Shown in pieces: positions 11,640-25,102 of a DNA stretch of 64,000 nucleotides; position 1 is the first letter of the stretch; each line of letters opens with the position of its first letter. The notes under the pieces were generated by a model. The model did no database searches. It saw only the letters and a list, made by a program, of their open reading frames with translations, and had not been told where the DNA came from. The position numbers were made by a program, and so were the translations under genes. This DNA comes from Candidatus Limnocylindria bacterium (GTDB lineage: Bacteria > Chloroflexota > Limnocylindria > P2-11E): contig DATCOD010000194.1 in assembly GCA_036564905.1 (NCBI GenBank), forward strand, positions 7,240 through 71,239. Direction: 5' to 3'.

Positions 11640-12784
11640 TGGACCCGACCCTTCCGGAGGAGCTGCGGCTGCTGCAGCAGAGCATCCGCGCGTTCGTCGA
11701 GGAGCGGCTCGTGCCGCGGGCCGACGAGATCGAGAAGAGCGATCGCATCCCGCGCGACGTCATCGACGCGATGGCCGCGATGGGCCTCTTCGGGATCGGG
11801 TTCCGCGAGTCGGTCGGTGGCCAGGGTTTCGGGAAGCTCGGGTACTGCATCGCGGTCGAGCAGCTCGCGCGGGCGAACGCGTCGCTGTGGAACGTGATCG
11901 GTGGGTCGGCCGGGCTGTGCGGGACGGCGATCGATGTCGGCGGTCCGGACGACCTGCGCGAGCGGTATCTGCCGGATCTGCTCTCCGCCAAGCGCATCGG
12001 GGCGTACGGACTGTCCGAGCCCGGCGCGGGCAGCGACGCCGGCAGCCTGCACACGAGCGCCCGCCGCGACCGCGACACCTACGTCATCGACGGGGCCAAG
12101 ACGTTCATCACCAACGCGCCGATCGCCGACGTGTTCACGATCTTCGCGACGGTCGACCATGCGGCCGGATCGAAGGGCATCACCGCGTTCGTCGTCGAGC
12201 GCGGCACGCCGGGCCTCGAGGTCGGGCCGAACGACGACAAGATGGGCCTGCACGGATCGACGACCGCCCAGCTCTTCTTCAGCGATCTCCGTGTGCCGGC
12301 GTCGCAACGCATCGGCGCGGAAGGCGAGGGCTTCAAGATCGCGCTCCGCACGCTCGACCTCGGGCGGCTCGGCCTCGCGGCGCACGCGGTCGGCGCGGCC
12401 CAGCGGCTCCTCGAGGCGTCGGTGGCGCACGCGAAGGCGCGCGTGCAGTTCGGGAAGCCGATCGCGGTCCACCAGGCGATCCAGTGGATGCTCGCCGACG
12501 CGGCGACCGAGATCCACGCCGCTCGGCTCATGGTCCACGACGCGGCGTCGCGCGCGGACCGGGGGGAACGCGTTACCGATCGGGCGGCGATGACGAAGCT
12601 GTTCGCGACCGAGCTCCTCGGCCGGGTGGCGGATGCCGCCGTCCAGATCCACGGCGGGATGGGCTACATGCGCGAGCTGTGGATCGAGCGGGCCTATCGG
12701 GATGCGCGCATCTACCGGATCTACGAGGGGACGAGCGAGATCCAGCGGGTCGTGATCGCGGCCGGCCTGCTTGCGGATGGCTGA
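11639..12784 (+). CDS. Acyl-CoA dehydrogenase
   Basis: 'YGLSEPGAGSDAGSL', 'KTFITNA', 'QIHGGMGYMRE', 'YRDARIYRIYEGTSEIQR' are ACAD motifs. ATGA overlap with the upstream thioesterase. Confidence 0.9.
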   Translation: MDPTLPEELRLLQQSIRAFVEERLVPRADEIEKSDRIPRDVIDAMAAMGLFGIGFRESVGGQGFGKLGYCIAVEQLARANASLWNVIGGSAGLCGTAIDVGGPDDLRERYLPDLLSAKRIGAYGLSEPGAGSDAGSLHTSARRDRDTYVIDGAKTFITNAPIADVFTIFATVDHAAGSKGITAFVVERGTPGLEVGPNDDKMGLHGSTTAQLFFSDLRVPASQRIGAEGEGFKIALRTLDLGRLGLAAHAVGAAQRLLEASVAHAKARVQFGKPIAVHQAIQWMLADAATEIHAARLMVHDAASRADRGERVTDRAAMTKLFATELLGRVADAAVQIHGGMGYMRELWIERAYRDARIYRIYEGTSEIQRVVIAAGLLADG

Positions 12785-12907
12785 GCGTTGGACGCGTTGC
12801 GAACAGGATCGCCGTTCGAACGTCGGGTGCCGCGGGCCGTCCGGTGTGGATAACCACCCGATTCCGGTGGATAAAGCCCCTCTAGGACCCCAAACGAGCC
12901 CTTTCCT

Positions 12908-13822
12908 GTGGAAAAGCCAGCCGTGCTGAAAGCGTCCACGCCGGGCGGACATCCCGTCATTCGGGCGGTCTGGCTGACCGGGTTCCTCCTCGTGCTGGCC
13001 GCCGTCGGGCTGCGACTCGTCGGCTCGTTCGCGTCCCCGATCATCGCGCTCGTCGCCGCCGGATGGTTCCTCGCGGGCCTCGCCGCGTACCTCGTCCGGC
13101 ACGCGCGCTTCCTCGCGACGCTGTCGAGTGGGGAGCGCGCGCTGCGCGCCGGGGACCTCGCGACCGCGCGCGCGATCGTCGCGCCGCTCGTCGACCGCTA
13201 CCCGGCCTTTGCGCCGGTCCAGCGGCTCGCCGGGCTGGTCCTCTACCCGAGCGGCGACCCGCTCTCGGCCGCGACGCTCCTCGAGGCCGCGGGGAAGCAC
13301 GCCCACGACCGCGATCTCGTCGTCACGCTCGTCGCCGCGTACGCCGCGCTCAACAAGGCCGGGGATGCGCGCCGCTCGGCGGCGCTCCGGCCGAACGACC
13401 CGGACGTCCGGCTGGCGCTCGCCTGGGCGGAGCTCGTCGCGCTCGGCGGCGACCGCACACGCGGCGCGGCGCTCGCCGCCGCGCTGCCCGTGGACTCACC
13501 GGCCCGTGCCGCCATGGCCGCGACCCTGCAGGCGATCGCCGCCGCGCACCGCCGCGATGCGGACGCGGTCCGCGCCCGGCTACGTGACGCGGAGGATCGC
13601 TACGTCCTGCTGGCCGAAGACGAGCGGGCGTTCCTCGGCTATCTCGGTGGAGTCGCGCTCCGCGAGCTCGGCGCCTCCGACGACGCGCGAACGACGTTCA
13701 CGCTCGCGATGGAAGCGGCACCGGAGTCGATCGGCGAGGCGCTCGCGCGCCGTGAGCGGGCTCACTTACCGTCGGGCTCGGGCTCTCCTTCGTCCTCATC
13801 GGTCCAACCTTCGGCGGACTGA
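12908..13822 (+). CDS. Hypothetical membrane-anchored Ala-rich (TPR-like) protein
   Basis: Two N-terminal hydrophobic helices followed by Ala/Arg/Leu-rich helical repeats. No recognisable catalytic motif. Confidence 0.35.
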   Translation: MEKPAVLKASTPGGHPVIRAVWLTGFLLVLAAVGLRLVGSFASPIIALVAAGWFLAGLAAYLVRHARFLATLSSGERALRAGDLATARAIVAPLVDRYPAFAPVQRLAGLVLYPSGDPLSAATLLEAAGKHAHDRDLVVTLVAAYAALNKAGDARRSAALRPNDPDVRLALAWAELVALGGDRTRGAALAAALPVDSPARAAMAATLQAIAAAHRRDADAVRARLRDAEDRYVLLAEDERAFLGYLGGVALRELGASDDARTTFTLAMEAAPESIGEALARRERAHLPSGSGSPSSSSVQPSAD

Positions 13823-14078: not shown

Positions 14079-15251
14079 TCACGAAATGGCGTCGATGCCG
14101 GTCGCGAAACGGCTGATGATGAGCTTCTGGATCTGGCTCGTGCCCTCGTAGAGGCGGTTGACCCGAGCATCGCGCCAGTACCGCTCGACCGGGAACTCGT
14201 CCGAGAAGCCGTAGCCGCCATGGATCTGGATCGCGCCGTCGGCGGCTCGCTGCGCCGCCTCGGTCGCGTAGAGCTTCGCGATGCTCGTCTCGCGCGTGTT
14301 CGGCCGGCCCTTGTCCTTGAGGTCGCCGGCGCGCCAGACCAGGAGGCGCGCCGCCTCGGTCTCCACGACCATGTCCGCGATCAGCTCGGCGACGAGCTGA
14401 TGACCCGCGATCGGCTTTCCGAATGTCTTCCGCTGCGTCGAATACGTGACCGAGGCGTCGATGCAGGCCTGCGCCACGCCGACGGCCCCGGCCGCGACGG
14501 AGTAGCGCCCGGAGTCGAGCGCGCTCATCGCGATCTTGAAGCCGTCGCCGATCTCGCCCAGGCGGTTCGCGTCGGGCACGCGGACGTCGTCGAAGATGAG
14601 CTCCGACGAATCGCTCGAGCGCAGCCCGAGCTTCCCGTGGATGCCCTGGCTCCCGTACCGCTGCTTCTCGCGATCGAGGAGGAACGCGACGATCCCCTTG
14701 TGCCCCAGCGCCGGGTCGGTCTGCGCGAACACGAGGGCCAGCCCGCTCACGCTGCCATTGCTGATCCACATCTTCCGGCCGCGCAGGATCCAGTCAGAGC
14801 CATCGCGCTTCGCGCTCGTGCGCAGCTTCGTGGCGTCGCTGCCGACCTCGGGTTCGGTGAGGCCGAAGCAGCCGATGATCGCCCCGCTGCACAACGCCGG
14901 CAGGTACTGCCTCTTCTGCGCCTCGGTGCCCCACTTGAGGATCGTGAGCTCGACGAGCGAGATCTGGACCGACAGCGTCGTCCGGACGGACGAGTCCGCG
15001 CGGCCGATCTCCTCGGTCACGAGCGCGTGCGAGATGTAGTCGAGACCGTGACCGCCGTACGCCTCGGGGACCGGGCCGCCGAGCAGCCCGAGGGGGCCCA
15101 TCTTCTTCAGGACGTCGGCCGGGAACGTCTCGGTCCTGTCGCGCTCGCGGGCGCCGGGCGCGATCTCCCGGTCGGCGAAATCGCGCGCAAGCGCGCGGAT
15201 CGCGTCCTGTTCCGGGGAGAGGTCGTAGTCCACTGCGCCGAGTCTAGGCAA
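14079..15251 (-). CDS. Acyl-CoA dehydrogenase (glutaryl-/short-chain-like)
   Basis: 'FGLTEPEVGSDA', 'KMWISNG', 'QIHGGYGFSDEFPVERYWRDARVNRLYEGTSQIQ'. Confidence 0.9.
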   Translation of the reverse strand: MPRLGAVDYDLSPEQDAIRALARDFADREIAPGARERDRTETFPADVLKKMGPLGLLGGPVPEAYGGHGLDYISHALVTEEIGRADSSVRTTLSVQISLVELTILKWGTEAQKRQYLPALCSGAIIGCFGLTEPEVGSDATKLRTSAKRDGSDWILRGRKMWISNGSVSGLALVFAQTDPALGHKGIVAFLLDREKQRYGSQGIHGKLGLRSSDSSELIFDDVRVPDANRLGEIGDGFKIAMSALDSGRYSVAAGAVGVAQACIDASVTYSTQRKTFGKPIAGHQLVAELIADMVVETEAARLLVWRAGDLKDKGRPNTRETSIAKLYATEAAQRAADGAIQIHGGYGFSDEFPVERYWRDARVNRLYEGTSQIQKLIISRFATGIDAIS

Positions 15252-15356
15252 CGCCTCGTGTCCGAGTCGTTACCGGGCTGGGCCGGATGGCCCACGGTGA
15301 TGGTGCGGAACGGCCCTAGTCCGGCCGGTCCCGAGCGCTGACACTGGTCGGAAACC

Positions 15357-16448
15357 ATGCGCCAGCTGGAAATGCCGCTCGTCCTTGTCCTCGAGCCGGA
15401 CCAGACGCTCGCCGACCCGATCGGCGTCGCATTGCGCGGCGCCGGCCTCCAGGTGGTGTCGTGCCGTCATGCGGTCGACGCGGTCGCCGCGGTCTCGTTC
15501 CACCGTCCGAGCGTCGTCGTCATCGACGTCGGCGCAGACGACGGACACGGCTGGGATGTGCTCGTCGCGGCCCGCGACCACGGTCAGCTGCCGACCGTCG
15601 CGCTCGACCGTGAGGACGATCCGGCGACCCGGCGCGCCGCGTACGCCGCGGGTGCCGACGATGTCCTTGCCGCACGAGTGGATCCCGTGGACCTCGCGGC
15701 GCGCGTGGTCGCGCTCGCGCGGCGCGCTCGCCCGGAGTCGCGGGGCGGCGTGATCCACCGGCACCACGATCTGGTCATGGATGTCGCGGCGCACGAGGTC
15801 ACGCTCGCGGGGAAGCCGATCGCGTTCACGGCGCAGCAGTTCGCGATCCTGCGCGCGCTCCTCGAGGCAGGCGGCGCGACGTTGGGCCGCGAACAGCTCG
15901 TCAGCCGGACCGGGGCGCTCGACGACGAGCCGCCATCGGACCGGGCCATCGACCTGCACGTCACCCGGTTGCGCCGCCGGCTCGGCGACGACCCACGCGC
16001 GCCGCGGTACATCGAAGCCGTATACGGCGTCGGGTATCGGCTGGCGCATGGCACCGGCGGGGTCCAGCAGCAGCTGGGCGCCGACGCATCCGTGCTACTC
16101 GACGCGCTCCCGGACGCGGTCCTCGTGCTCGACCGCGCCCTCACCATCCGCTTCGCGAACCGCACCGCCGAGCTCCTCCTCGGCCTGCCGCGCGCGTCGC
16201 TCGCCGGCCAGCGCTGCGGCGCGATCCTCGCCTGCACGTCCTGCGGCGGCCTGCCGCTCGACGGGCCTCGCTGTATCGGTCGGGCGGCGCTCGGTGGCCT
16301 CGCACAGGTGCACGACGCGCCGGCGATCATGCGCGGTCCCGACGGTCCCCTGCCGGTCAGCCTGTCGTACGGACAGCTCGGGCTCGGCAAGGGCGACGCG
16401 CTGCTCACCTTGACCATCCGCCCGCGTTCGGCCGCGCCCGCGCCCTGA
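15357..16448 (+). CDS. Atypical response regulator: REC-like domain + OmpR/PhoB winged-helix DNA-binding domain + C-terminal PAS domain
   Basis: REC-like 'LVLVLEPDQ...VVVIDVGADDGHG'; wHTH 'FTAQQFAILRALLEAGGATLGREQLV...IEAVYGVGYRL'; PAS-like 'LLDALPDAVLVLDRALTIRFANRTAELLLG'. Confidence 0.7.
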   Translation: MRQLEMPLVLVLEPDQTLADPIGVALRGAGLQVVSCRHAVDAVAAVSFHRPSVVVIDVGADDGHGWDVLVAARDHGQLPTVALDREDDPATRRAAYAAGADDVLAARVDPVDLAARVVALARRARPESRGGVIHRHHDLVMDVAAHEVTLAGKPIAFTAQQFAILRALLEAGGATLGREQLVSRTGALDDEPPSDRAIDLHVTRLRRRLGDDPRAPRYIEAVYGVGYRLAHGTGGVQQQLGADASVLLDALPDAVLVLDRALTIRFANRTAELLLGLPRASLAGQRCGAILACTSCGGLPLDGPRCIGRAALGGLAQVHDAPAIMRGPDGPLPVSLSYGQLGLGKGDALLTLTIRPRSAAPAP

Positions 16449-16449
16449 C

Positions 16450-16468
16450 TCGGACACAGGTCGGACAC
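16450..16468. promoter_or_regulatory. Tandem direct repeat TCGGACAC-N3-TCGGACAC (11-bp periodicity) between the regulator gene and the GNAT/Bcr-like operon; candidate OmpR-type operator
   Basis: Read directly: 'tcggacac agg tcggacac' at 16450-16468, 23 nt upstream of the GNAT ATG. Confidence 0.35.
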
Positions 16469-16490
16469 GATCGGGCAGTAGCTTCGGCCC

Positions 16491-16922
16491 ATGGTCATCA
16501 CCGCGGCCGGACCGGCCATTCGCGATCTCCGCCCAACGGACATCGCCGCACTCGTCTCGCTCGGGGACGCGCTCGGCGCGGGCGAGCCCGCCCAGGTCTG
16601 GCGCCGGCGCCTGGGCGACCGTGCGATCGTGGCGATCGGCGCCGAGCAGGATGGACGGATCGTCGGCTACGCCGCCGGCAGCGTGCGCACCGCCTTCGGT
16701 CTCGAGACCGGCGGTTGGGTCGAGACCTTCGCCGTCGCGAATGCGTGGCGCGGCCGCGGGCTCGGCCGGACTCTCGCGAGCGAGCTCCTCGCGCGCTTCC
16801 GCGCCACCGGCGCGCAGCACGTCTACACGATCGTCCCGGTCCACGACCTCGCGCTGCTGCCGTTCTTCCGCGATCTCGGCTTCCGCGACCTGCCCGTGAC
16901 GGCGCTCGGACGGACGCTGTGA
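16491..16922 (+). CDS. GNAT family N-acetyltransferase
   Basis: 'FAVANAWRGRGLGRTLASELL' is the GNAT motif A (R/Q-x-x-G-x-G/A). GTGA overlap with the downstream gene. Confidence 0.75.
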   Translation: MVITAAGPAIRDLRPTDIAALVSLGDALGAGEPAQVWRRRLGDRAIVAIGAEQDGRIVGYAAGSVRTAFGLETGGWVETFAVANAWRGRGLGRTLASELLARFRATGAQHVYTIVPVHDLALLPFFRDLGFRDLPVTALGRTL

Positions 16923-18082
16923 CCCTGACGCTGGACACCACGTTCCCGGCCGCTCGGTACCGCGACGTCGTCGAGGACCGGGACTTCCCGACCGTTCGCG
17001 ACTACGCGCGACGGACCGGTCGGTCCGCCGCCGGCTGCTACCCGGTGTACGGGCCGGTCGAGCTCGTGCGCGCCGCGGGACTCCTGCCGGTCGGTCTTTT
17101 CGGCGGCGGGAACCGCATCGAGATCGCGCATGCGGACTCCCGTTTCCAGTCGTTCATCTGCTCGATCGTGAAGAGCACGATGGAGCTCGGCTTCCAGGAG
17201 AAGCTCGGGCCGTTCAAGGCCCTGCTCTTCGAGTCGATCTGCGATCCCGCGCGGAACCTCGCCAGCATCATGTCGCGCAACTTCGCCGACCAGAAGTCGG
17301 TGTACGTCCACCTCCCGCAGAACATGACGTCGCCGGCGGCGGTCGACTACCTCGTGTCGGAGTACCGGCGCGTCCTCGCCGAGCTCTGCCTGGTGACGGG
17401 CACGACCGTCACCGACGACGATCTCCGCGAGAACCTCCGTTCGTACAACGCCATGCGGGCCGCGCTCCGCGAGCTCTACGCGTTCCGAGCGCGCCGCCCC
17501 GAATCGCTCCTCACGGGCGAGCTCTACACGCTCACCCGGCTTGCGACGTTGATGGATCCCGACGAGGTCACGCCGATCCTCCGCGAGTCGCTGGCGGCGG
17601 CGAACGAGCGCCAGGACCGGCCGAAGGACCGCATCCGGGTCGTGCTCATCGGCGCGTTCTGCGAGCAGCCACCACTCGAGCTCGTCGAGAGCATCGAGGA
17701 GTCCGGCTGCTACATCGTCGACGATGACTTCATGCTCGGATGGCGGTTGTTCCGCCGCGACGTGCCGCTGGACGGCGATCCGCTCGTCGCGCTCGCGCGG
17801 GCCTACCTCGATGACAGCGTGCACCTGAGCACGAAGCACGACCTCCGCGCGCCGCGCGCGAAGGCGATCGTGGACTCGGTGCGGTCCATGAAGGCCGACG
17901 CCGCGATCTGCCTCATCGCGAAGTTCTGCGAGCCAGGGCTCTTCGACTACGCGCTCTATCGCAAGGCGTTCGACGAGAACGCGATCCCGCATCTCTACCT
18001 CGAGTTCGAAGAGAAGATGTGGCTCTACGAAAAGATCAGAACGGAGGTCGAGACCTTCGTGGAATCGATGCTCTTCCGATGA
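16919..18082 (+). CDS. Bcr/Hgd-like enzyme, HGD-D-type subunit 1 (homologous to benzoyl-CoA reductase BcrB/BadE and 2-hydroxyacyl-CoA dehydratase HgdB)
   Basis: 387-aa product with HGD-D family features (conserved Cys; '...FICSIVKSTMELG...ICDPARN...CLIAKFCEPG'). GTG start overlaps the GNAT stop. Confidence 0.75.
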   Translation: MTLTLDTTFPAARYRDVVEDRDFPTVRDYARRTGRSAAGCYPVYGPVELVRAAGLLPVGLFGGGNRIEIAHADSRFQSFICSIVKSTMELGFQEKLGPFKALLFESICDPARNLASIMSRNFADQKSVYVHLPQNMTSPAAVDYLVSEYRRVLAELCLVTGTTVTDDDLRENLRSYNAMRAALRELYAFRARRPESLLTGELYTLTRLATLMDPDEVTPILRESLAAANERQDRPKDRIRVVLIGAFCEQPPLELVESIEESGCYIVDDDFMLGWRLFRRDVPLDGDPLVALARAYLDDSVHLSTKHDLRAPRAKAIVDSVRSMKADAAICLIAKFCEPGLFDYALYRKAFDENAIPHLYLEFEEKMWLYEKIRTEVETFVESMLFR

Positions 18083-19368
18083 CCGCTGCGGTCGAGATCA
18101 AGTACCAGGGCGAGCTGCATCTCCTGCAGAAGGAGATCATGGCGAAGTACTACGCCGAGGCGACCGCGATCGCCGAGGGGAACGGCAAGAAGGCCGCGCA
18201 CCTCCTGATCGCGGGGAACCCGGTCGAGCTCCTGCGGGCGTTCGACGTGCTCCCGATCTACCCGGAGGTGAACGTCCTCCAGATCGCGGTCCGGAAGGGC
18301 TCCCTCCCGCTCATCCAGAAGGCCGAAGAGCTCGGTTACGCGACGGACAACTGCGCCTACGTGAAAGCCGACATCGGTCTCTACCACGCCGGCGGCGTCA
18401 CGCCGTTCGCCAAGATCCCGAAGCCGGACGTGCTCGTGTGCAACTACGTCGGCTGCAACGTCTACCTCAACTGGTTCGAGCATCTCGCCGAGCTGACCGG
18501 CGCGCCGGCGATGAACATCGACATCCCGTTCATCCGCACGCCCGACGGCGAGCCGACCGCGGACGACGTCCGGTACGTGGTGAAGCAGCTCGAGGAGCTC
18601 ATCGTCCTTCTGGAGAACGTGACCGGGAAGAGCCTCGACTGGAAGGAATTCACGAAGATCGTCGAGCGCTCGTCCGAGACCGGACGCCTCTGGGCCGAGA
18701 TCAAGGACATGACCAAGGCGCGCCCGGCACCGTACGACGCCTACTTCGACTCGGTCACGATGATGGCCCCGCTCTACACGCTCCGCGGCACCGAGGAGGG
18801 CCTCCGGTTCTTCGAGGTCGCGCATCGCGAGATGAGCCAGCGGGTGCGCGAAGGCCGCGGCCCGCTCCCGGAGGAGCGGTTCCGCATCGTCATCGAGGGG
18901 CCGCCACCGTGGCCGAAGCTCCGGGTCTTCCGCGACATGTTCAGTCGCTGGGGCGCCGTCGCCGTCGCGTCCACCTATTCGACCGTCGGCGGGCTCTGGG
19001 AGTTCGGCTTCCGGCACGACCCGCAGCACCCGCTGGAGTCCATCGCCGCTCACATGCTGTCGTACAACGTCTGCAACCGGACCTTCCTCCAGCGCTATGA
19101 GCAGATCGAGCGGTACGTGGACGAGTGGCACGCCGACGCCGTGGTCATCCACTCGGTGAAGTCCTGCCGGCTCTTCTCCGCGGGGCAAGGCGACATGCGC
19201 GAGCACTTCGTCCGAGACCGCGACGTCCCGACGCTCCTCATCGAGTCCGATCTCGAGGACCCGCGCTACTTCTCGGAGGCGCAGCTCCGCAACCGCATCG
19301 ACGCCTTCTTCGAGGCGCTCGAGCAGCGGCGGATCACCGCGGGCAAGGCGGCCGGAGGGGTGTCATGA
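18079..19368 (+). CDS. Bcr/Hgd-like enzyme, HGD-D-type subunit 2 (BcrC/BadD/HgdA-like)
   Basis: 'NCAYVKADIG...LVCNYVGCNVYLNWFEHLA...VIHSVKSCRLFSAGQ' is the HGD-D-family Cys pattern. ATGA overlap with subunit 1. Confidence 0.75.
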   Translation: MTAAVEIKYQGELHLLQKEIMAKYYAEATAIAEGNGKKAAHLLIAGNPVELLRAFDVLPIYPEVNVLQIAVRKGSLPLIQKAEELGYATDNCAYVKADIGLYHAGGVTPFAKIPKPDVLVCNYVGCNVYLNWFEHLAELTGAPAMNIDIPFIRTPDGEPTADDVRYVVKQLEELIVLLENVTGKSLDWKEFTKIVERSSETGRLWAEIKDMTKARPAPYDAYFDSVTMMAPLYTLRGTEEGLRFFEVAHREMSQRVREGRGPLPEERFRIVIEGPPPWPKLRVFRDMFSRWGAVAVASTYSTVGGLWEFGFRHDPQHPLESIAAHMLSYNVCNRTFLQRYEQIERYVDEWHADAVVIHSVKSCRLFSAGQGDMREHFVRDRDVPTLLIESDLEDPRYFSEAQLRNRIDAFFEALEQRRITAGKAAGGVS

Positions 19369-20165
19369 GATACGCGGCGGGCGTCGATGTCGGATCCACG
19401 CAGACGAAGGCGATCATCGTCGACGAGCAGCAGCACATCATCGCCCGGTCCCTCACCGACACCGGCGCGTACCTCGTGCGTGCGGCCGACCGGGCCTTCC
19501 AGGCAGCGCTCGACGAGTCCGGGCTCGCCCGGGGCGACGTCGAGCAGGTCATCGGCACCGGCTATGGCCGATTCAAGGTCGAGTTCGGTGACGCGCAGGT
19601 GACCGAGATCTCGTGCCACGCGAAGGGCGCCTGGGCGCTCATTCCGGCCACCCGCACGGTCATCGACATCGGCGGCCAGGACACGAAGGCGATCAAGGTG
19701 AGCGACCACGGCGAGGTCCTCGACTTCGCGATGAACGACAAGTGCGCCGCGGGGAGCGGCCGGTTCCTCACCAACTCCGCCGAGGCGGTCGGGCTGCAGG
19801 TCTCAGAGATGGGCGAGCGGTCGATGGGCGCAAAGCAGCCCGTGCGTCTCTCGACCGTGTGCACGATCTTCGTCGAGTCCGACATCCTCCAGTACCTCGC
19901 TCAGGGGAAGAAGATCGAGGACATCCTGGCCGGGGTCCACGGCTCGATCGCCGCGCGCACCGTCGCCCTCGTCCGGCGCGTCGGCGCCGAGTCCGAGGTG
20001 ACGTTCACCGGCGGGGTCTCGCGCAACGTCGGCATCGTGAAGGCCGTGGAAGAGAAGCTCGCCACGCACGTGAACGTGAGCCCTGACTCGCACTACACCG
20101 GCGCGCTCGGCGCGGCGATCTTCGCGATGGAGCGGGTCGTCGCCGGCCGGGAGGTGCTCGCATGA
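19365..20165 (+). CDS. BadF/BadG/BcrA/BcrD-type ATPase subunit 1 (HgdC-like activator, ASKHA fold)
   Basis: 'AGVDVGSTQTKAIIVD', 'IDIGGQDTKAI', 'NDKCAAGSGRFL', 'TGGVSRN' are the acetate/sugar kinase-like ATPase motifs of HgdC/BcrAD. ATGA overlap upstream. Confidence 0.85.
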   Translation: MRYAAGVDVGSTQTKAIIVDEQQHIIARSLTDTGAYLVRAADRAFQAALDESGLARGDVEQVIGTGYGRFKVEFGDAQVTEISCHAKGAWALIPATRTVIDIGGQDTKAIKVSDHGEVLDFAMNDKCAAGSGRFLTNSAEAVGLQVSEMGERSMGAKQPVRLSTVCTIFVESDILQYLAQGKKIEDILAGVHGSIAARTVALVRRVGAESEVTFTGGVSRNVGIVKAVEEKLATHVNVSPDSHYTGALGAAIFAMERVVAGREVLA

Positions 20166-20965
20166 CGCTGATCGCCGGCATCGACATGGGCTCCCGAAGC
20201 GCGAAATGCGTGCTCATCGATGGGGACGCGGTCGTCGGGAGCGGGCTCGCGCGGATGCGCCCCGACTTCGCGGGTCTTGCGAACGAGGTCCTCGAGCTCG
20301 CGCTCGCGAAGGCCGGACGGCAGCGGACCGATGTCGCCTACATCGCGACGACCGGACTCGGCCGCTACAACGTGCCGCACCGCGACATCCAGATCACCGA
20401 CATCACCTGCGTCGCGCGGGGTGCCGCGCACCTCTTCCCGAACACCAGATCGGTGATCGACATCGGCGCGCAGACGACGCGCGCGATGCGCGTCAAGGAG
20501 GGCGGCCATGTCGTGGAGTTCCGGTCGAACGACAAGTGCGCCGCCGGCGCCGGCGGGTTCGCGGAGCGCGCGGCGCGTTACCTCGAGGTGAAGCTCGAGG
20601 ATCTCGGCGACCTGTCGCTCCGTGCCGACGGGGCCGAGGCCTTTACCTCGGTCTGCGCCGTGTTCGCGGAGTCCGAGATCATCAACCTCGTCACCGCCGG
20701 CACGAGCATCGAGAACATCGTCCGCGGGATCCACGACTCGCTCTCCGAGAAGGCTCTCCAGCTCCTGAAACGGGTCGGCCTCGAGCCCGAGCTCACCTTC
20801 GTGGGCGGCATGGCCCGGCAGGCCGGCCAGGTGAAGTCCCTCGAGACGGCGCTCGGGGTGTCGGTGAACGTCTCGCCGGATCCCGATCTCGTCGCGGCGC
20901 TCGGCGCCGCCCTCCTCGGGCGGCAGCGGTACGAGGGTCGTGCTTCGCAGGAGGTGGCGGCATGA
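20162..20965 (+). CDS. BadF/BadG/BcrA/BcrD-type ATPase subunit 2 (HgdC-like)
   Basis: 'AGIDMGSRSAKCVLID', 'IDIGAQTTRAM', 'NDKCAAGAGGF', 'VGGMARQ'. Paralogous to the preceding ATPase. Confidence 0.85.
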   Translation: MTLIAGIDMGSRSAKCVLIDGDAVVGSGLARMRPDFAGLANEVLELALAKAGRQRTDVAYIATTGLGRYNVPHRDIQITDITCVARGAAHLFPNTRSVIDIGAQTTRAMRVKEGGHVVEFRSNDKCAAGAGGFAERAARYLEVKLEDLGDLSLRADGAEAFTSVCAVFAESEIINLVTAGTSIENIVRGIHDSLSEKALQLLKRVGLEPELTFVGGMARQAGQVKSLETALGVSVNVSPDPDLVAALGAALLGRQRYEGRASQEVAA

Positions 20966-21918
20966 ACGAGCTCCACGACATCGGGTACACGATCAAGGAC
21001 TGGGTGGCCACGGTCACCATCCGCCGGCCGAGCTCGTACAACGCCTACACGACCCGCACCCTGGGCGAGCTCGCGCGGGCGTTCCGCGCAGCGTCGGAGG
21101 ACGACTCGGTCGCCGTCATCGTCCTCACCGGCGAGGGGGAGCAGGCCTTCTGCACCGGTGGCGACGTCAAGGAATACGCCGACGTGTACACGAAGCGCCC
21201 GCACGAGTACTGGAAGTACATGCGCGCGTTCTCCGACGCGATCGAAGGGCTCACGCAGTCGGGCAAGCCGACGATCGCGCGGATCAATGGAATGGCCGTC
21301 GGCGGCGGGAACGAGCTCAACCTCGCCTGCGACCTGTCGGTCGCGGCGGACCATGCCCGCTTCCGCCAGGTCGGCGTGCAGGTCGGCTCCGTCGCCGCGG
21401 GCGGGGCGACCCAGTGGCTCGCGCTCACGATCGGCGAGAAGCGCGCGCGGCAGATGCTCATGACCTGCGAGTGGGTGGACGCGAAGACGGCGCTCGAGTG
21501 GGGCCTCGTGAACGAGGTCGTACCCCTGGCCGAGCTCGACGCGGCGGTCGCGCGGCTCGCCGGGAAGCTCGTCGACACGTTCCCCGAGTGCATGCGCTAC
21601 ACGAAGGCGCAGGCCAACTTCCTGAAGGACTTCGTCTGGTCGTCCACCGTGAGCCACGCCAAGGACTGGCTCTCCGTGCACTTCGGCTCGCTCGAGCCGT
21701 ACGAGGGGATGAGCGCGTTCGCGCAGAAGCGGCGCGCCGACCGCGTCGGTCTCCGTGAGAAGGCCCGCGACGGTGGCTCGAGCGAATACCTCTGGGGTCC
21801 GAACACCCAAGCCTGTCCCGGCTGCGGGGCCCTGGGCCTGCCGGCCGCCTTCAGCCACTGCGGCAGGTGTGGCCACGCCCTCATGCCCGTGGCCGAGCCC
21901 GTCCATGCTGGTCGCTAG
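20962..21918 (+). CDS. Enoyl-CoA hydratase/isomerase (crotonase) family protein, possibly MenB/BadI-like, with an unusual ~45-aa C-terminal Cys4 zinc-ribbon tail
   Basis: Crotonase core 'AFCTGGDVKEY...INGMAVGGGNELNLACDL...EGMSAFAQKRRAD', then 'CPGCGALGLPAAFSHCGRCGH'. RBS 'aggaggtggcgg' upstream; ATGA overlap with ATPase 2. Confidence 0.8.
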   Translation: MNELHDIGYTIKDWVATVTIRRPSSYNAYTTRTLGELARAFRAASEDDSVAVIVLTGEGEQAFCTGGDVKEYADVYTKRPHEYWKYMRAFSDAIEGLTQSGKPTIARINGMAVGGGNELNLACDLSVAADHARFRQVGVQVGSVAAGGATQWLALTIGEKRARQMLMTCEWVDAKTALEWGLVNEVVPLAELDAAVARLAGKLVDTFPECMRYTKAQANFLKDFVWSSTVSHAKDWLSVHFGSLEPYEGMSAFAQKRRADRVGLREKARDGGSSEYLWGPNTQACPGCGALGLPAAFSHCGRCGHALMPVAEPVHAGR

Positions 21919-22684
21919 CCGAAGCGCGACCCGTGACGCCGCGCCGCTCCTGGGGCGTGTCGCCCTCGTGACCGGCGGCTCGCGGGGCATCGGGCGCGCG
22001 ATCGCGCTCGACCTCGCCGCGCACGGAGCGGCGGTCGCGTTCACCTACGCGCACGATGCCGCCGCGGCCGGCGCGGTCACCGACCGCATCGCCGAGGCCG
22101 GGCGCGACGCGCTGGCCGTCCGGGCGGACGGCCGCACGGTTGCGGACGTCGAGCTCGCCATCGCCGCGACCGCTGAACGGTTCGGCGGCCTCGACATCCT
22201 CGTGAACAACGCCGGGATCACCCGCGACCGGATGGTCTGGAAGATGACCGATGACGAGTGGTCCGATGTGCTCGACGCCGACCTCAGCGCGTGCTTCCGG
22301 TACATCCGCGCCGCCGTGCCCCTGCTCCGCGAGCGAGGCGGTGGGCGGATCGTGAGCATCTCCTCGATCAACGCCCAGCGGGGGAAGCTCGGGCAGTCGA
22401 ACTACACCGCGTCGAAGGCGGGCATCATCGGGCTCTCCAAGAGCGTCGCGCGCGAGGTCGGGCAGTACGGCATCACGGTGAACGTCATCACCCCGGGCCT
22501 CATCGCGACCGATCTCGTCGCCGCCGCGCCCGACGAGGTCCGCACGCGCGCGCTCGGCGAGATCGTCCTCGGCAGGCTCGGTGCGCCCGAGGACGTGGCG
22601 GCGCTCGTCACGTTCCTCGCGACCGATCGCGCGAAGCACATCACCGGCGCGGTCATCCCGGTCGACGGTGGCCAATACCTCTAG
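21905..22684 (+). CDS. SDR-family oxidoreductase, FabG/BadH-like 3-oxoacyl or 2-hydroxyacyl-CoA dehydrogenase
   Basis: 'ALVTGGSRGIGRAIA', 'NNAGI', 'SSINAQRGKLGQSNYTASKAG' contain the TGxxxGxG and YxxxK motifs. Start may instead be a downstream GTG. Confidence 0.85.
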   Translation: MLVASRSATRDAAPLLGRVALVTGGSRGIGRAIALDLAAHGAAVAFTYAHDAAAAGAVTDRIAEAGRDALAVRADGRTVADVELAIAATAERFGGLDILVNNAGITRDRMVWKMTDDEWSDVLDADLSACFRYIRAAVPLLRERGGGRIVSISSINAQRGKLGQSNYTASKAGIIGLSKSVAREVGQYGITVNVITPGLIATDLVAAAPDEVRTRALGEIVLGRLGAPEDVAALVTFLATDRAKHITGAVIPVDGGQYL

Positions 22685-22693
22685 GGGGACGGC

Positions 22694-23128
22694 ATGCGGA
22701 TCATCGATCGCTTCTCACGCGAGCACGAGGCCTTCGTCGGAGCGCTCGACGCGCTCCGGATCGCCGTGGCGTCAGGCGGCGACGTTGGTCTCGCGATCGC
22801 CGCGATCCGGACGCTCGCCGAGCCGCTGCTGCGGCACGCCGCGAACGAGGAGGTCCTGCTCTTCCCGGACCTCGTGGAGAAGCTCGGAGGCGAGGACGGC
22901 GGCCCGGTGGGGGTCCTCCGGCAGGAGCACACGATCATCCACGGTCAGGTCGACACGCTGCGCGGGACCCCGACGCGGGCCGACTTCGATCGGGTGTTCA
23001 AGGCGTTCGACGCGCTGCTCCGAGAGCACATCGAGAAGGAAGAGGAGGTGCTCTTCCCGCTGTCGGCGCGGCTGCTCGGGGACGCCCGCCTCGCCGAGAT
23101 GGACGAGGAGATCGCCGCGGGGGTCTAG
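22694..23128 (+). CDS. Hemerythrin-like (HHE cation-binding) domain protein
   Basis: 'REHEAF...LLRHAANEEVLLFPDL...LRQEHTIIH...LLREHIEKEEEVLFP' has the repeated H/E-x-x-x-E spacing typical of hemerythrin HHE domains. Confidence 0.55.
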   Translation: MRIIDRFSREHEAFVGALDALRIAVASGGDVGLAIAAIRTLAEPLLRHAANEEVLLFPDLVEKLGGEDGGPVGVLRQEHTIIHGQVDTLRGTPTRADFDRVFKAFDALLREHIEKEEEVLFPLSARLLGDARLAEMDEEIAAGV

Positions 23129-23895
23129 TGGTGCACCCACCTGGGGGGGCGCTTTTCGAGGAACGCGCGGAGACCCTCCTGCGCGTCGGCCGATCCCGGT
23201 AGCGCATCGACCGAGAGCGCGTTCGCTCGCTCGATCGCGGCGAGCAGATCCGGCCACGAGACACGGAGGGAGCGGCGCGCGAGGCGCAGCGCGGATGCGC
23301 TCTTCGCTTCGAAGCCCGCGGCGACCCGCGCGGCCTCGGCGCGCAGCTCCGTCGCGGGCACGCTTCGCCAGACAAGTCCCCACGCGGCCGCCTCGGCCCC
23401 GGAGATCGGCTCGCCGGTGAGCACGAGGGCCGCGGCGCGCTGGCGGCCGATCACGCTCGGGAAGAGCGCCGCGCCGACCGGAGGGACCACCGCAAGGGTG
23501 ATCTCGGGCACGCCGATCCGGGCGTCGTCCGCGACGATCGCGAGGTCACAGAGCGCCACGAGCTCGCACGCACCACCCAGCGCCGAGCCGTGCACGACGG
23601 CCATGACCGGGACGTCGCCCTCGATGAGCCGGACGGCCACGCGGGTGAACGCGTCGAGCATCGGGCCGATCTGGTCGCCCAGGTGCTCGCCGATGTCGAC
23701 GCCCGCGGAGAACGTCTTACCGGCGCCTTCCAGGACGATGAGCTTCAGCGATCGGTCGGCCGCGAGATCGTGGAGCGTCTCGTCGAGCTCGTCCATGAGC
23801 GCCATGTTCAGGACGTTCAGCGGCGGCCGATCGAGGGTCGTCCACGCCACGCCGCCTTCGCGGCGCACGTGGACCTGGGTTCCGATGGCGGGCAT
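23125..23895 (-). CDS. Enoyl-CoA hydratase/isomerase family protein
   Basis: 'LEGAGKTFSAGVDI...AVVHGSALGGACELVALCDLAIV...GLRAFLEKRPPRW'. ATG at 23895 confirmed by the 'cat' on the plus strand. Confidence 0.85.
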   Translation of the reverse strand: MPAIGTQVHVRREGGVAWTTLDRPPLNVLNMALMDELDETLHDLAADRSLKLIVLEGAGKTFSAGVDIGEHLGDQIGPMLDAFTRVAVRLIEGDVPVMAVVHGSALGGACELVALCDLAIVADDARIGVPEITLAVVPPVGAALFPSVIGRQRAAALVLTGEPISGAEAAAWGLVWRSVPATELRAEAARVAAGFEAKSASALRLARRSLRVSWPDLLAAIERANALSVDALPGSADAQEGLRAFLEKRPPRWVHH

Positions 23896-24079
23896 GGTAG
23901 GGATGGTCGGCGCCGGCCGTGTCCGTCCGGCGTCAGCCACGGCCGGTGCGGCACGCCCCGCTGACATCGGCCGGACATCCTTCGCCGCTACGGTCCGAAG
24001 GAGACGCTCGCCGGGAGGCCTGCCCACGTCGATCGACACCGCACCAGCCGCCGACCCGACCGACGCCTTGCCGGCGACG

Positions 24080-25102
24080 ATGCGTGGCGCGGTGTTCACC
24101 GGCGGCGGCAAGCCGCTCGAGCTGCGCGTCGTTCCCCGGCCGAACGCCGGACCGGGAGAGGTCCTCGTCCGGGTGGTCGCCTGCGGGCTCTGCCACAGCG
24201 ACCTCCATTACCTCGACCACGGCACGCCGACGTTCAAGGCGCCGCCGCTCATCCTGGGCCACGAGATCTCAGGCACGGTGGTGGGCGTCGGCTCGGGAGT
24301 GAGCCCGGAGCGCACCGGTGAGGGCGTCGTCCTGTCCTCGATCTCGACCTGCGGCACGTGTCCCGCCTGCCGGTCCGGACGGGAGAACCAGTGCGCGGAG
24401 CAGCGGATGATCGGCAACTCGGTCGACGGCGGCCTCTCCGAGTACGTCGCCTGGCCGGCCCGCGACACGTTCCAGATCCCTCCTGAGGTGCCCCTCGAGG
24501 ACGCCTGCATCGTCGCCGACGCGCTCACGACCGCGTTCCACGCGGTCGTCCGCCGCGGCCGCGTCTCGTCCGGCGAGACGGTCGCGGTCTTCGGCTGTGG
24601 CGGCGTCGGACTCTCGGCCGTCCAGGTGGCCGTCCAGGCGGGCGCCCGCGTCCTCGCGATCGACATCGACCCGAAGAAGCTCGCGCTCGCGCGGGCGTTC
24701 GGCGCCGAGCTCACGTTCGACGCGAAGGATCCGGACCTCGTCAAGGCGTTGAAGCGCGCGACGTCCGGTGGACCCGACGTCGCCATCGAAGCCATCGGCA
24801 AGCCGGACGTGCAGGAGCAGGCCCTCTCGGCGCTGCGCACCGGCGGCCGGCTCGTGCTCCTGGGCTTCGCCGCGAAACCGATGTCCGTGCAGGGCGGCCG
24901 GGTGACGTTCCGGGAGCTCGAGATCATCGGCACGCTCGGCTGCCGCAACGTGGACTTCCCCCTCGTCATCGACCTCGTCCGGCGCGGCAAGCTCTTGATC
25001 ACGCCGCTCGTCTCACATCGCCATCGCCTGGAGGAGGTGAATGCGGGCTTCGACCTGTTGCGCTCGGGCGCCGGTATCCGTCACATCGTCGTGATGGAGT
25101 AG
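24080..25102 (+). CDS. Zinc-dependent alcohol dehydrogenase (MDR family)
   Basis: 'ACGLCHSDLH' and 'GHEISGTVVGVG' are the catalytic Zn site; 'CGTCPACRSGRENQC' is the structural Zn site; 'VFGCGGVGLSAV' is the NAD fold. Confidence 0.85.
   Translation: MRGAVFTGGGKPLELRVVPRPNAGPGEVLVRVVACGLCHSDLHYLDHGTPTFKAPPLILGHEISGTVVGVGSGVSPERTGEGVVLSSISTCGTCPACRSGRENQCAEQRMIGNSVDGGLSEYVAWPARDTFQIPPEVPLEDACIVADALTTAFHAVVRRGRVSSGETVAVFGCGGVGLSAVQVAVQAGARVLAIDIDPKKLALARAFGAELTFDAKDPDLVKALKRATSGGPDVAIEAIGKPDVQEQALSALRTGGRLVLLGFAAKPMSVQGGRVTFRELEIIGTLGCRNVDFPLVIDLVRRGKLLITPLVSHRHRLEEVNAGFDLLRSGAGIRHIVVME

Follow-up and report, generated by a model that had tools for sequence, protein, structure and literature searches.

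In a 64-kb stretch of DNA from a Candidatus Limnocylindria bacterium, called the window in the following (G+C content 71%), a short directly repeated element lies between the gene for a three-domain regulator and an operon for a benzoyl-CoA-reductase-like enzyme. The regulator is encoded at 15357..16448 on the forward strand (363 aa, stop codon TGA at 16446-16448) and consists of a receiver-like domain, a winged-helix DNA-binding domain and a C-terminal PAS-fold domain. Our analysis points to the 18-bp element after its stop codon as an operator of this same regulator. Overall, we consider it likely that the regulator binds this box as a PhoB-style activator of a benzoyl-CoA-type regulon and is controlled through its PAS domain.

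In the mechanism that we propose, a head-to-tail dimer of the winged-helix domains would sit on two 7-bp direct repeats whose centres are 11 bp apart. The bound regulator would occupy the -35 region and recruit RNA polymerase in the manner of PhoB, and the transcript would start at or beside the start codon, i.e. without a leader. The same arrangement of box, 10 nt and -10 hexamer (the box-plus-10 module) would drive the operon of GNAT, BcrCBAD-like, Oah-like, short-chain dehydrogenase/reductase (SDR) and hemerythrin genes and also the had-like and dch-like genes. A further box at the start codon of the regulator gene would give negative autoregulation, and control would be exerted via the fused PAS domain rather than by aspartate phosphorylation. 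The core of this interpretation was already contained in an earlier note that had been made from the letters of the window; it is supported by the comparative evidence presented here, which strengthens it considerably. What the note had stated as fact was confirmed throughout.

The succession of receiver, winged helix and PAS domain, which the earlier note had described as unusual, is real according to Pfam and is conserved in 186 homologues of approximately 360 aa with the same three-domain layout. The regulator is from uncultured soil Chloroflexota. All of the homologues originate from metagenomes or metagenome-assembled genomes (MAGs), and the named ones belong to Candidatus Limnocylindria/Chloroflexota. 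For the comparison, 23 genomic and 39 metagenomic loci of the family as well as seven extended loci were used, which are given with L numbers where they need to be distinguished.

A conserved box upstream of the GNAT gene

Right after the regulator stop codon, TCGGACAC is found exactly at 16450-16457 and again at 16461-16468 with AGG in between, i.e. with the period of 11 bp that had been noticed before. The ATG of the GNAT gene (16491) is located 22 nt past the last repeat base, which is the previously given distance of 23 nt when counted inclusively. According to our own arithmetic, approximately 2.5-3.6 exact 8-mer repeats at one fixed offset are expected per 64 kb at this G+C content. The window contains 1-12 such repeats per offset across the offsets 8-22, approximately 62 in total and one at offset 11, and a 19-nt repeat pattern with up to three mismatches gave 3 matches compared to 1.6 expected. 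The bare 8-mer repeat is not beyond chance. Its significance comes from its conservation and its position at promoters, and not from its exactness.

The conservation became visible when 43 distinct regulator-GNAT junctions were aligned with the start codon as anchor, which resulted in the common layout C[T/G]GACA[T/C]-N4-CGGACA[C/T](GATC)-N6-TAnnnT-N6-8-ATG/GTG. The information content is highest at the two GACA cores and at the TA...T hexamer. The pattern GACAY-N6-GACR-N11-TAnnnT is present in 38 of the 42 distinct orthologous junctions (from Limnocylindria/Chloroflexota MAGs, the regulators being 44-81% identical) and does not occur on either strand of 1.15 Mb of unrelated loci, which are of lower G+C content. 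Within the window it is found only at 16453 and 23963, each time directly upstream of genes. The earlier note had stated that absence of the repeat from orthologous intergenic regions would speak against its proposal; in the orthologous junctions the repeat is present. Judged from the alignment, the functional unit goes beyond an 8-mer pair and is an 18-bp box (7+4+7 bp) exactly 10 nt from a -10 hexamer. In the window, this unit is represented by box 1 (CGGACAC-AGGT-CGGACAC, 16451..16468, forward strand), the proposed activator site, which belongs to the layout kept in 38/42 junctions and scores 22.4 with an 18-nt position weight matrix (PWM) built from the orthologous GNAT junctions, the window itself being left out.

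These data also bear on the most sceptical reading, namely that the repeat was duplicated by chance or acts in the RNA, for instance as terminator or attenuator of the regulator gene, and is without function in the DNA itself. Chance alone is indeed expected to produce exact 8-mer repeats at a given offset in a G+C-rich window, but the element recurs in 38/42 junctions and at unrelated promoters on both strands. Moreover, no terminator was found in 15150-16650, the junction gave no Rfam match and its RNA fold is ordinary (z = -0.29). Already contradicted by the comparative data, this reading is hardly conceivable.

The box is followed by the -10 hexamer TAGCTT at 16479..16484 on the forward strand, with 10 nt separating it from box 1 and 6 nt from the GNAT ATG. 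A TAnnnT hexamer is near-invariant, 6-8 nt from the start codon, in the 43 junctions. The distance between box and hexamer stays constant while the stop codon of the regulator shifts among the loci; in many of them the distal half-site includes the TGA itself, and in L016, L018 and L078 one or both repeats are located inside the coding end of the regulator. Because the distance to the -10 is fixed wherever the stop codon falls, the box appears to belong to the downstream promoter and not to the end of the regulator gene. A -35/-10 pair at standard spacing was not found in 15150-16650. A standard sigma-70 promoter was considered and rejected, as CTGACA and CGGACA are positioned 22 and 11 nt from the hexamer and neither is usable as -35; the spacings are also unsuited for a -35/-10 pair of the extracytoplasmic function (ECF) type. 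Since the hexamer is only 6-8 nt away from the start codon and a Shine-Dalgarno sequence is absent, the transcript of the GNAT operon is probably leaderless.

A variation was observed in the distant orthologues L017, L019, L020, L021 and L088, in whose junctions the proximal half-site reads GGACGA and makes up a perfect palindrome, ACGGACGA-TCT-TCGTCCGT, which reaches the -10. This palindrome might represent a second binding mode or a hairpin.

The predicted regulon

The gene layout was derived from the third-position G+C content together with Pfam and NCBIfam scans. By Pfam, NCBIfam and synteny, the proposed target operon extends over 16491..23128 on the forward strand and comprises genes for GNAT, BcrC-like and BcrB-like proteins, two BcrA/D-type ATPases, an Oah-like crotonase, an SDR and a hemerythrin. 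It is followed by a dch-like enoyl-CoA hydratase gene on the reverse strand (23895-23125) and a had-like Zn-dehydrogenase gene on the forward strand (24080-25102). The two HGD-D proteins of the operon have their best NCBIfam matches with BcrC (296.7 bits, equivalog cut-off 421) and BcrB (311.5 bits, cut-off 486.6), and the ATPases reach 199 bits (cut-off 578) and 168 bits (cut-off 313) with the BcrA/BcrD models; all four are below the cut-offs. The Oah-, Had- and Dch-like assignments are likewise best matches under the NCBIfam equivalog cut-offs. Because the BcrCBAD-type subunits all score under these cut-offs, the product of the operon is assigned as a relative of the class I benzoyl-CoA reductase (BCR) BcrCBAD and not as a certified BCR. 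The genes of 16491-25102 are interpreted as a benzoyl-CoA-type dearomatisation pathway; the set of best matches (BcrC, BcrB, BcrA/D, Oah, Had, Dch) is that of the Thauera-type benzoyl-CoA pathway.

That the regulator gene heads this operon, as had been supposed, applies to the family as a whole. The order regulator, GNAT, BcrC-like, BcrB-like, two ATPases and crotonase is found in essentially all loci with enough sequence, and the regulator-GNAT-bcr synteny persists down to 44% regulator identity. The GNAT acetyltransferase gene is the invariably conserved first gene of the operon, and the gene upstream of the regulator is not conserved among the loci.

Scanning of the 64-kb window with the PWM resulted in four sites, to be compared with a maximum score of 17.4 in 20 Markov shuffles. 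Two of them stand back to back within the divergent intergenic region between the dch-like and had-like genes. Box 3 (CTGACAT-CGGC-CGGACAT, 23961-78), followed by 10 nt and TACGGT (module at 23961..23994, forward strand), scores 26.4, above all shuffles, and is located upstream of the had-like ATG at 24080. Box 4 on the reverse strand (CTGACGC-CGGA-CGGACAC, 23919-36; module at 23903..23936) scores 19.6 and is followed by 10 nt, GACCAT and, after 7 nt, the dch-like ATG at 23895. Box 4 is less conserved, since L148 has no counterpart with a score of at least 13. In front of the had-like gene, box-plus-10 modules were also found in L148, L150 (two copies) and L155, and L149 carries them ahead of a hemerythrin-ADH pair and a beta-propeller gene. 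In all boxes before the ADH and had-like genes (window, L148, L149, L150, L155), 10 nt and TAnnnT follow. The two copies in L150 are tandem modules within 18401-18565. Together, the boxes are taken to define a compact regulon around the BcrCBAD-like operon and the had-like and dch-like genes.

Box 2 (CTGACAC-TGGT-CGGAAAC, 15338..15355, forward strand, PWM score 16.9) ends 1 nt before the ATG of the regulator and is proposed as an autoregulatory operator. In most orthologues, a box is found 1-3 nt ahead of the regulator start codon, and these sites lie outside the training set of the PWM. The autoregulation is probably negative, because box 2 covers the start of the regulator gene.

A candidate site before the divergently oriented acyl-CoA dehydrogenase gene (14079-15233, reverse strand), which lies upstream of the regulator, is not supported and is regarded as doubtful. 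It was found as a 3-mismatch match on the reverse strand (CGGTAAC-GACT-CGGACAC, 11 nt, TAGACT, 7 nt, GTG at 15233; 15241..15276) and has a PWM score below 9; its box is not conserved in four close loci, though the -10 is.

A paralogue of the regulator with 42% identity and the three conserved cysteines of the PAS domain is encoded in L023 (4938-6056), which is from the same MAG as L018, away from the bcr-like operon. At 7465-7540 of L023, a box with a PWM score of 20.7, followed by 10 nt and GATCCT, is placed 38 nt upstream of a gene for a 674-aa NosZ-like protein (nos_propeller plus cupredoxin).

Probable reading of the box by the regulator

The winged-helix domain (residues 152-229; 15810..16043, forward strand) matches Trans_reg_C (PF00486) with 67.1 bits compared to a gathering cut-off of 26.2. 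Its recognition-helix stretch DRAIDLHVTRLRRRL is nearly invariant across the homologues, and R196, D199, L200, H201 and R208 are invariant. Searches against the PDB sequences gave the DNA-binding domains of MtrA, RegX3, KdpE, OmpR and PhoB. By both domains, receiver and winged helix, the regulator is classified as an OmpR/PhoB-family transcription factor. It reaches neither of the two PhoB models (TIGR02154, 89.7 bits, cut-off 296.2; NF007546, 56.7 bits, cut-off 471), and it is judged to be neither a PhoB orthologue nor a canonical response regulator.

The pho box is offset from the -10 by 10 bp. The PhoB site comprises 18 bp with two 7-bp CTGTCAT repeats and a 4-bp spacer, and PhoB contacts it as two tandem units of 11 bp, TGTCA lying in the major groove, and recruits the polymerase through sigma (PMC4447250). 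The pho box of E. coli replaces the -35 next to the -10 (PMC4971064). The present system resembles this arrangement in its OmpR/PhoB winged helix, its 18-bp 7+4+7 site with TGACA similar to the TGTCA of PhoB sites, and the placement of the site instead of a -35 adjoining the -10 (PMC4447250, PMC4971064). The 11-bp tandem spacing, which the earlier note had regarded as preferred by OmpR-family proteins, is indeed typical of PhoB-type proteins (PMC4447250, PMC2275107), and 11-nt direct-repeat units are also known from Streptomyces PhoP (PMC2275107). In contrast to PhoB, the spacer is G+C-rich instead of A/T-rich, the targets are catabolic genes without relation to phosphate, the receiver has degenerated, and the DNA-binding domain is followed by an additional PAS domain. 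Given the identical 7+4+7 layout, the core that differs in one base and the 10 nt to the -10, a PhoB-like class II activator model fits best. That the regulator binds the box is highly probable in our view. That it activates is also reasonably probable, because the box stands exactly 10 nt upstream of TAnnnT and no usable -35 is present.

The regulator could also bind the same boxes and repress, by covering the -35 region and blocking RNA polymerase until a signal releases it. Such a function would agree with the boxes spanning roughly -40 to -19, with box 2 abutting the regulator start codon in a typical operator position, and with the general experience that many pathway-specific regulators of aromatic catabolism are repressors. 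However, the promoters have neither a -35 hexamer at 16-18 nt spacing nor an extended -10 TG, and their unaided activity should be low. Furthermore, the constant 10-nt offset to the -10 is that of PhoB-activated promoters (PMC4971064, PMC4447250), and such exact phasing is not needed for repression. Hence, we consider repression unlikely.

The likeness to the pho box brings up the question whether another member of the OmpR/PhoB family, e.g. a true PhoB or PhoP, reads the box, with the neighbourhood of the regulator being coincidental. CTGACAT and the pho-box repeat of E. coli, CTGTCAT, differ in one base, and the two boxes have the same layout (PMC4447250). Nevertheless, the box travels with the regulator gene in more than 40 loci and sits at its start codon. 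All genes that it precedes belong to one catabolic pathway, apart from nosZ in the case of the paralogue, no target gene is phosphate-related, and the regulator is far below the PhoB equivalog cut-off as mentioned above. Another reader is very improbable, and an activator function of the regulator itself is favoured in the following.

The receiver-like domain

The N-terminal domain (residues 9-117; 15381..15707, forward strand) is recognised as Response_reg (PF00072) with 38.2 bits at a gathering cut-off of 30.2. The AF2 model of the regulator has a pLDDT of 88.4 and displays the (beta-alpha)5 receiver fold as five strand-helix units at high pLDDT. Column counts of receiver and PAS residues were taken over 114 homologues, and the catalytic positions were located by alignment with MtrA (2gwr). 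The earlier note had emphasised an EPD pocket. Residues 13-15 are indeed E-P-D where MtrA has D-D-D, E13-P14 being aligned with the two Asp and D15 following; nevertheless, this is the lesser anomaly, as the T and K residues are absent throughout the family and the phospho-Asp varies. The second acidic position, here P14, is Asp in 81, Gly in 12 and Pro in 11 of the 114 sequences. The phospho-Asp column, here D57, contains Asp in 85 sequences, Ala in 21, Gln in 4 and other residues in 4. At the T position, here D84, 102/114 have Asp, 6/114 Glu and none Ser or Thr, and at the K position, here A106, only 10/114 have Lys. H49, P51 and W66 are invariant in all 114 sequences; they sit in the FHRP and GWD motifs (15501-15554) and take the place of the usual catalytic quintet. 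Because of the family-wide loss of T and K and the variability of the phospho-Asp, the domain is classified as a pseudo-receiver according to the definition in PMC12632262, and because it is a pseudo-receiver, control is probably not exerted by Asp phosphorylation.

The competing assumption is a conventional phosphorylation-dependent response regulator with an unlinked histidine kinase, in which the PAS domain serves as a dimerisation or accessory module. It is consistent with D57 in this protein and Asp in 75% of the homologues, with the recognition of Response_reg by Pfam, and with the end of a HATPase_c gene adjoining the regulator in the L018/L153 clade. This gene end (L153, 1-239) occurs only in the most divergent bcr-linked clade, in which the receiver is undetected by Pfam. 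On the other hand, the T position is never Ser/Thr and Lys is rare at the K position, 25% of the sequences have another residue, mostly Ala or Gln, instead of the phospho-Asp while the rest of the protein and the box are conserved, and no kinase gene flanks the regulator in the window, L148-L150, L152 or L155. Moreover, three PAS cysteines are invariant in the 114 sequences, which argues for a functional sensor. We regard phosphorylation control as quite improbable and continue with control through the PAS domain.

To our knowledge, ChxR, HP1043/HsrA and GlnR end after the winged helix and carry no fused sensor domain. The regulator shares with them the OmpR-type DNA-binding domain and a receiver without catalytic residues, and these proteins act without Asp phosphorylation, often on direct repeats (PMC12632262, PMC3960148, PMC5253667). 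It differs from them by the C-terminally fused, Cys-rich PAS domain, which would offer an obvious input route.

The cysteine-containing PAS domain

The C-terminal domain (residues ~240-358; 16074..16430, forward strand) was assigned by PAS Pfam models and fold comparison. Residues 245-291 match PAS_4, PAS_8 and PAS with 30, 28.5 and 26.5 bits, the match being limited to the N-terminal half of the models, and the five-stranded antiparallel sheet with flanking helices that characterises the PAS fold is present. The domain contains the cysteine motif C287-x5-C293-x2-C296-x9-C306 (16215..16274, forward strand) at the place where PAS domains usually hold cofactors. C287, C293 and C306 are found in 114/114 homologues, C296 in 89/114 (78%). 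The three invariant cysteines are retained also in the divergent members P0127 and P0172. Among the 1.84 billion representative proteins that were searched, the motif was found in this regulator family only, in approximately five clusters at 50% identity; regarding other architectures, the same search gave mostly generic multi-PAS proteins without the motif. The family with receiver, winged helix and Cys-PAS is apparently restricted to Limnocylindria-like Chloroflexota. A profile search against the PDB to an E value of 1 gave generic PAS domains only, whereby the structure of the NreB PAS may be newer than the library used, and neither sequence search nor fold search found solved relatives with Fe-S clusters.

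The regulated enzyme type, which is benzoyl-CoA-reductase-like, is oxygen-sensitive. AadR and AcpR (both Fnr-type), BadR, BadM and BzdR are oxygen-responsive regulators of benzoyl-CoA pathways, and the Fnr-type AadR and AcpR sense oxygen by a Cys-bound Fe-S cluster. The regulator described here resembles them in the predicted pathway-level control of a gene cluster for an oxygen-sensitive, ATP-dependent ring-reducing enzyme. However, the protein families are unrelated (Crp/Fnr, MarR, Rrf2 and XRE, none of them OmpR-type), and the operators of those regulators are palindromes, whereas direct repeats are found here.

Three-Cys PAS domains with Fe-S clusters have been reported for NreB, which binds a [2Fe-2S] cluster (PMC13478379), and OrpR, which binds a [4Fe-4S] cluster (PMC8359166). 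Both proteins have in common with our regulator the PAS fold, three strictly conserved cysteines after the second strand and the control, predicted in our case, of genes for an anaerobic lifestyle (PMC13478379, PMC8359166). The cysteines are placed differently, at +20, +26, +29 and +39 after strand 2 here and at +20, +23 and +35 in NreB, which corresponds to C-x5-C-(x2-C)-x9-C compared to C-x2-C-x11-C. Furthermore, NreB belongs to the histidine kinases, and OrpR is a sigma-54 activator whose PAS domain is N-terminal, whereas here the PAS is C-terminal to an OmpR-type domain; sequence similarity to solved Fe-S PAS domains was not detected, and the Fe-S cofactor is putative here. We regard it as a real possibility, with chances near balance at best, that the input signal is an Fe-S cluster or redox thiols on the three cysteines reporting the oxygen or redox state. 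An input of this kind is the most plausible one because of the Cys-PAS precedents, the oxygen-sensitive enzyme type, the hemerythrin in the regulon and the putative NosZ-like target of the paralogue. Alternatively, a small-molecule ligand may be the signal of the PAS domain.

Counterpoints and implications

Several observations weigh against the proposal of a PAS-controlled activator. Repression is also possible from a site that overlaps the -35 region, and the position of box 2 is typical of a repressor; because the box resembles the pho box, another OmpR-family protein could in principle read it. Box 2 is below the shuffle maximum and not significant by its score alone, and the site before the acyl-CoA dehydrogenase is not significant on score either. 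Regarding the receiver, D57 and two acidic pocket residues are retained in this protein, phosphorylation is not in every case lost upon substitutions at DD, T or K (PMC12632262), and in the divergent L018/L153 clade the end of the HATPase_c histidine-kinase gene is found 200 nt upstream of the regulator. Finally, C296 is missing from 22% of the homologues, and in the profile search of PDB sequences the cysteine segment had no detectable similarity to any solved PAS.

With clearly more doubt than confidence, we suggest that the family represents an unrecognised class of one-component oxygen- or redox-sensing transcription factors, in which a defunct receiver is combined with an OmpR/PhoB domain that is switched by a three-Cys Fe-S PAS domain and serves the anaerobic modules of Limnocylindria. 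If true, this class would switch BCR-like dearomatisation and, via the paralogue, N2O reductase, and it would be functionally analogous to FNR yet use PhoB-style class II activation on direct repeats. What turns regulators with pseudo-receivers on and off is acknowledged to be an open question (PMC12632262), and the family suggests one answer, namely that a sensor domain is attached C-terminally of the DNA-binding domain. With operator and regulon defined and dozens of natural sequence variants at hand, this idea is directly testable in vitro. Moreover, the benzoyl-CoA-reductase-like gene cluster occurs widely among uncultured Limnocylindria of soil and sediment, and the regulator would provide the first access to its regulation; the box-plus-10 module could be used to predict more regulon members in Limnocylindria genomes.

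Further observations on the locus

Some side observations concern start codons and neighbouring genes. The TTG start of the acyl-CoA dehydrogenase gene (15251) is probably wrong. The GTG at 15233 gives the N-terminus MDYDLSPEQ and is preceded by TAGACT and 7 nt, i.e. by the same leaderless geometry, and this -10 is kept in L004, L068 and L148. A 304-aa open reading frame (ORF; 12908-13822, forward strand) with a strong coding signal and without a Pfam match adjoins the acyl-CoA dehydrogenases in L004 and L148, too. In L149, a glutaredoxin-like ORF (12715-13197) is inserted between the two HGD-D subunit genes.

The start of the had-like gene differs between the window and L148. In L148, the ATG follows 6 nt after TACGGT and its transcript would be leaderless. 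Compared to it, the window carries an insertion of approximately 32 nt (region 23989-24082) with the Shine-Dalgarno sequence GGGAGG, followed 7 nt later by an in-frame ACG (24026); this ACG stands where L148 has its had-like ATG, and the first ATG in the window is the one at 24080.

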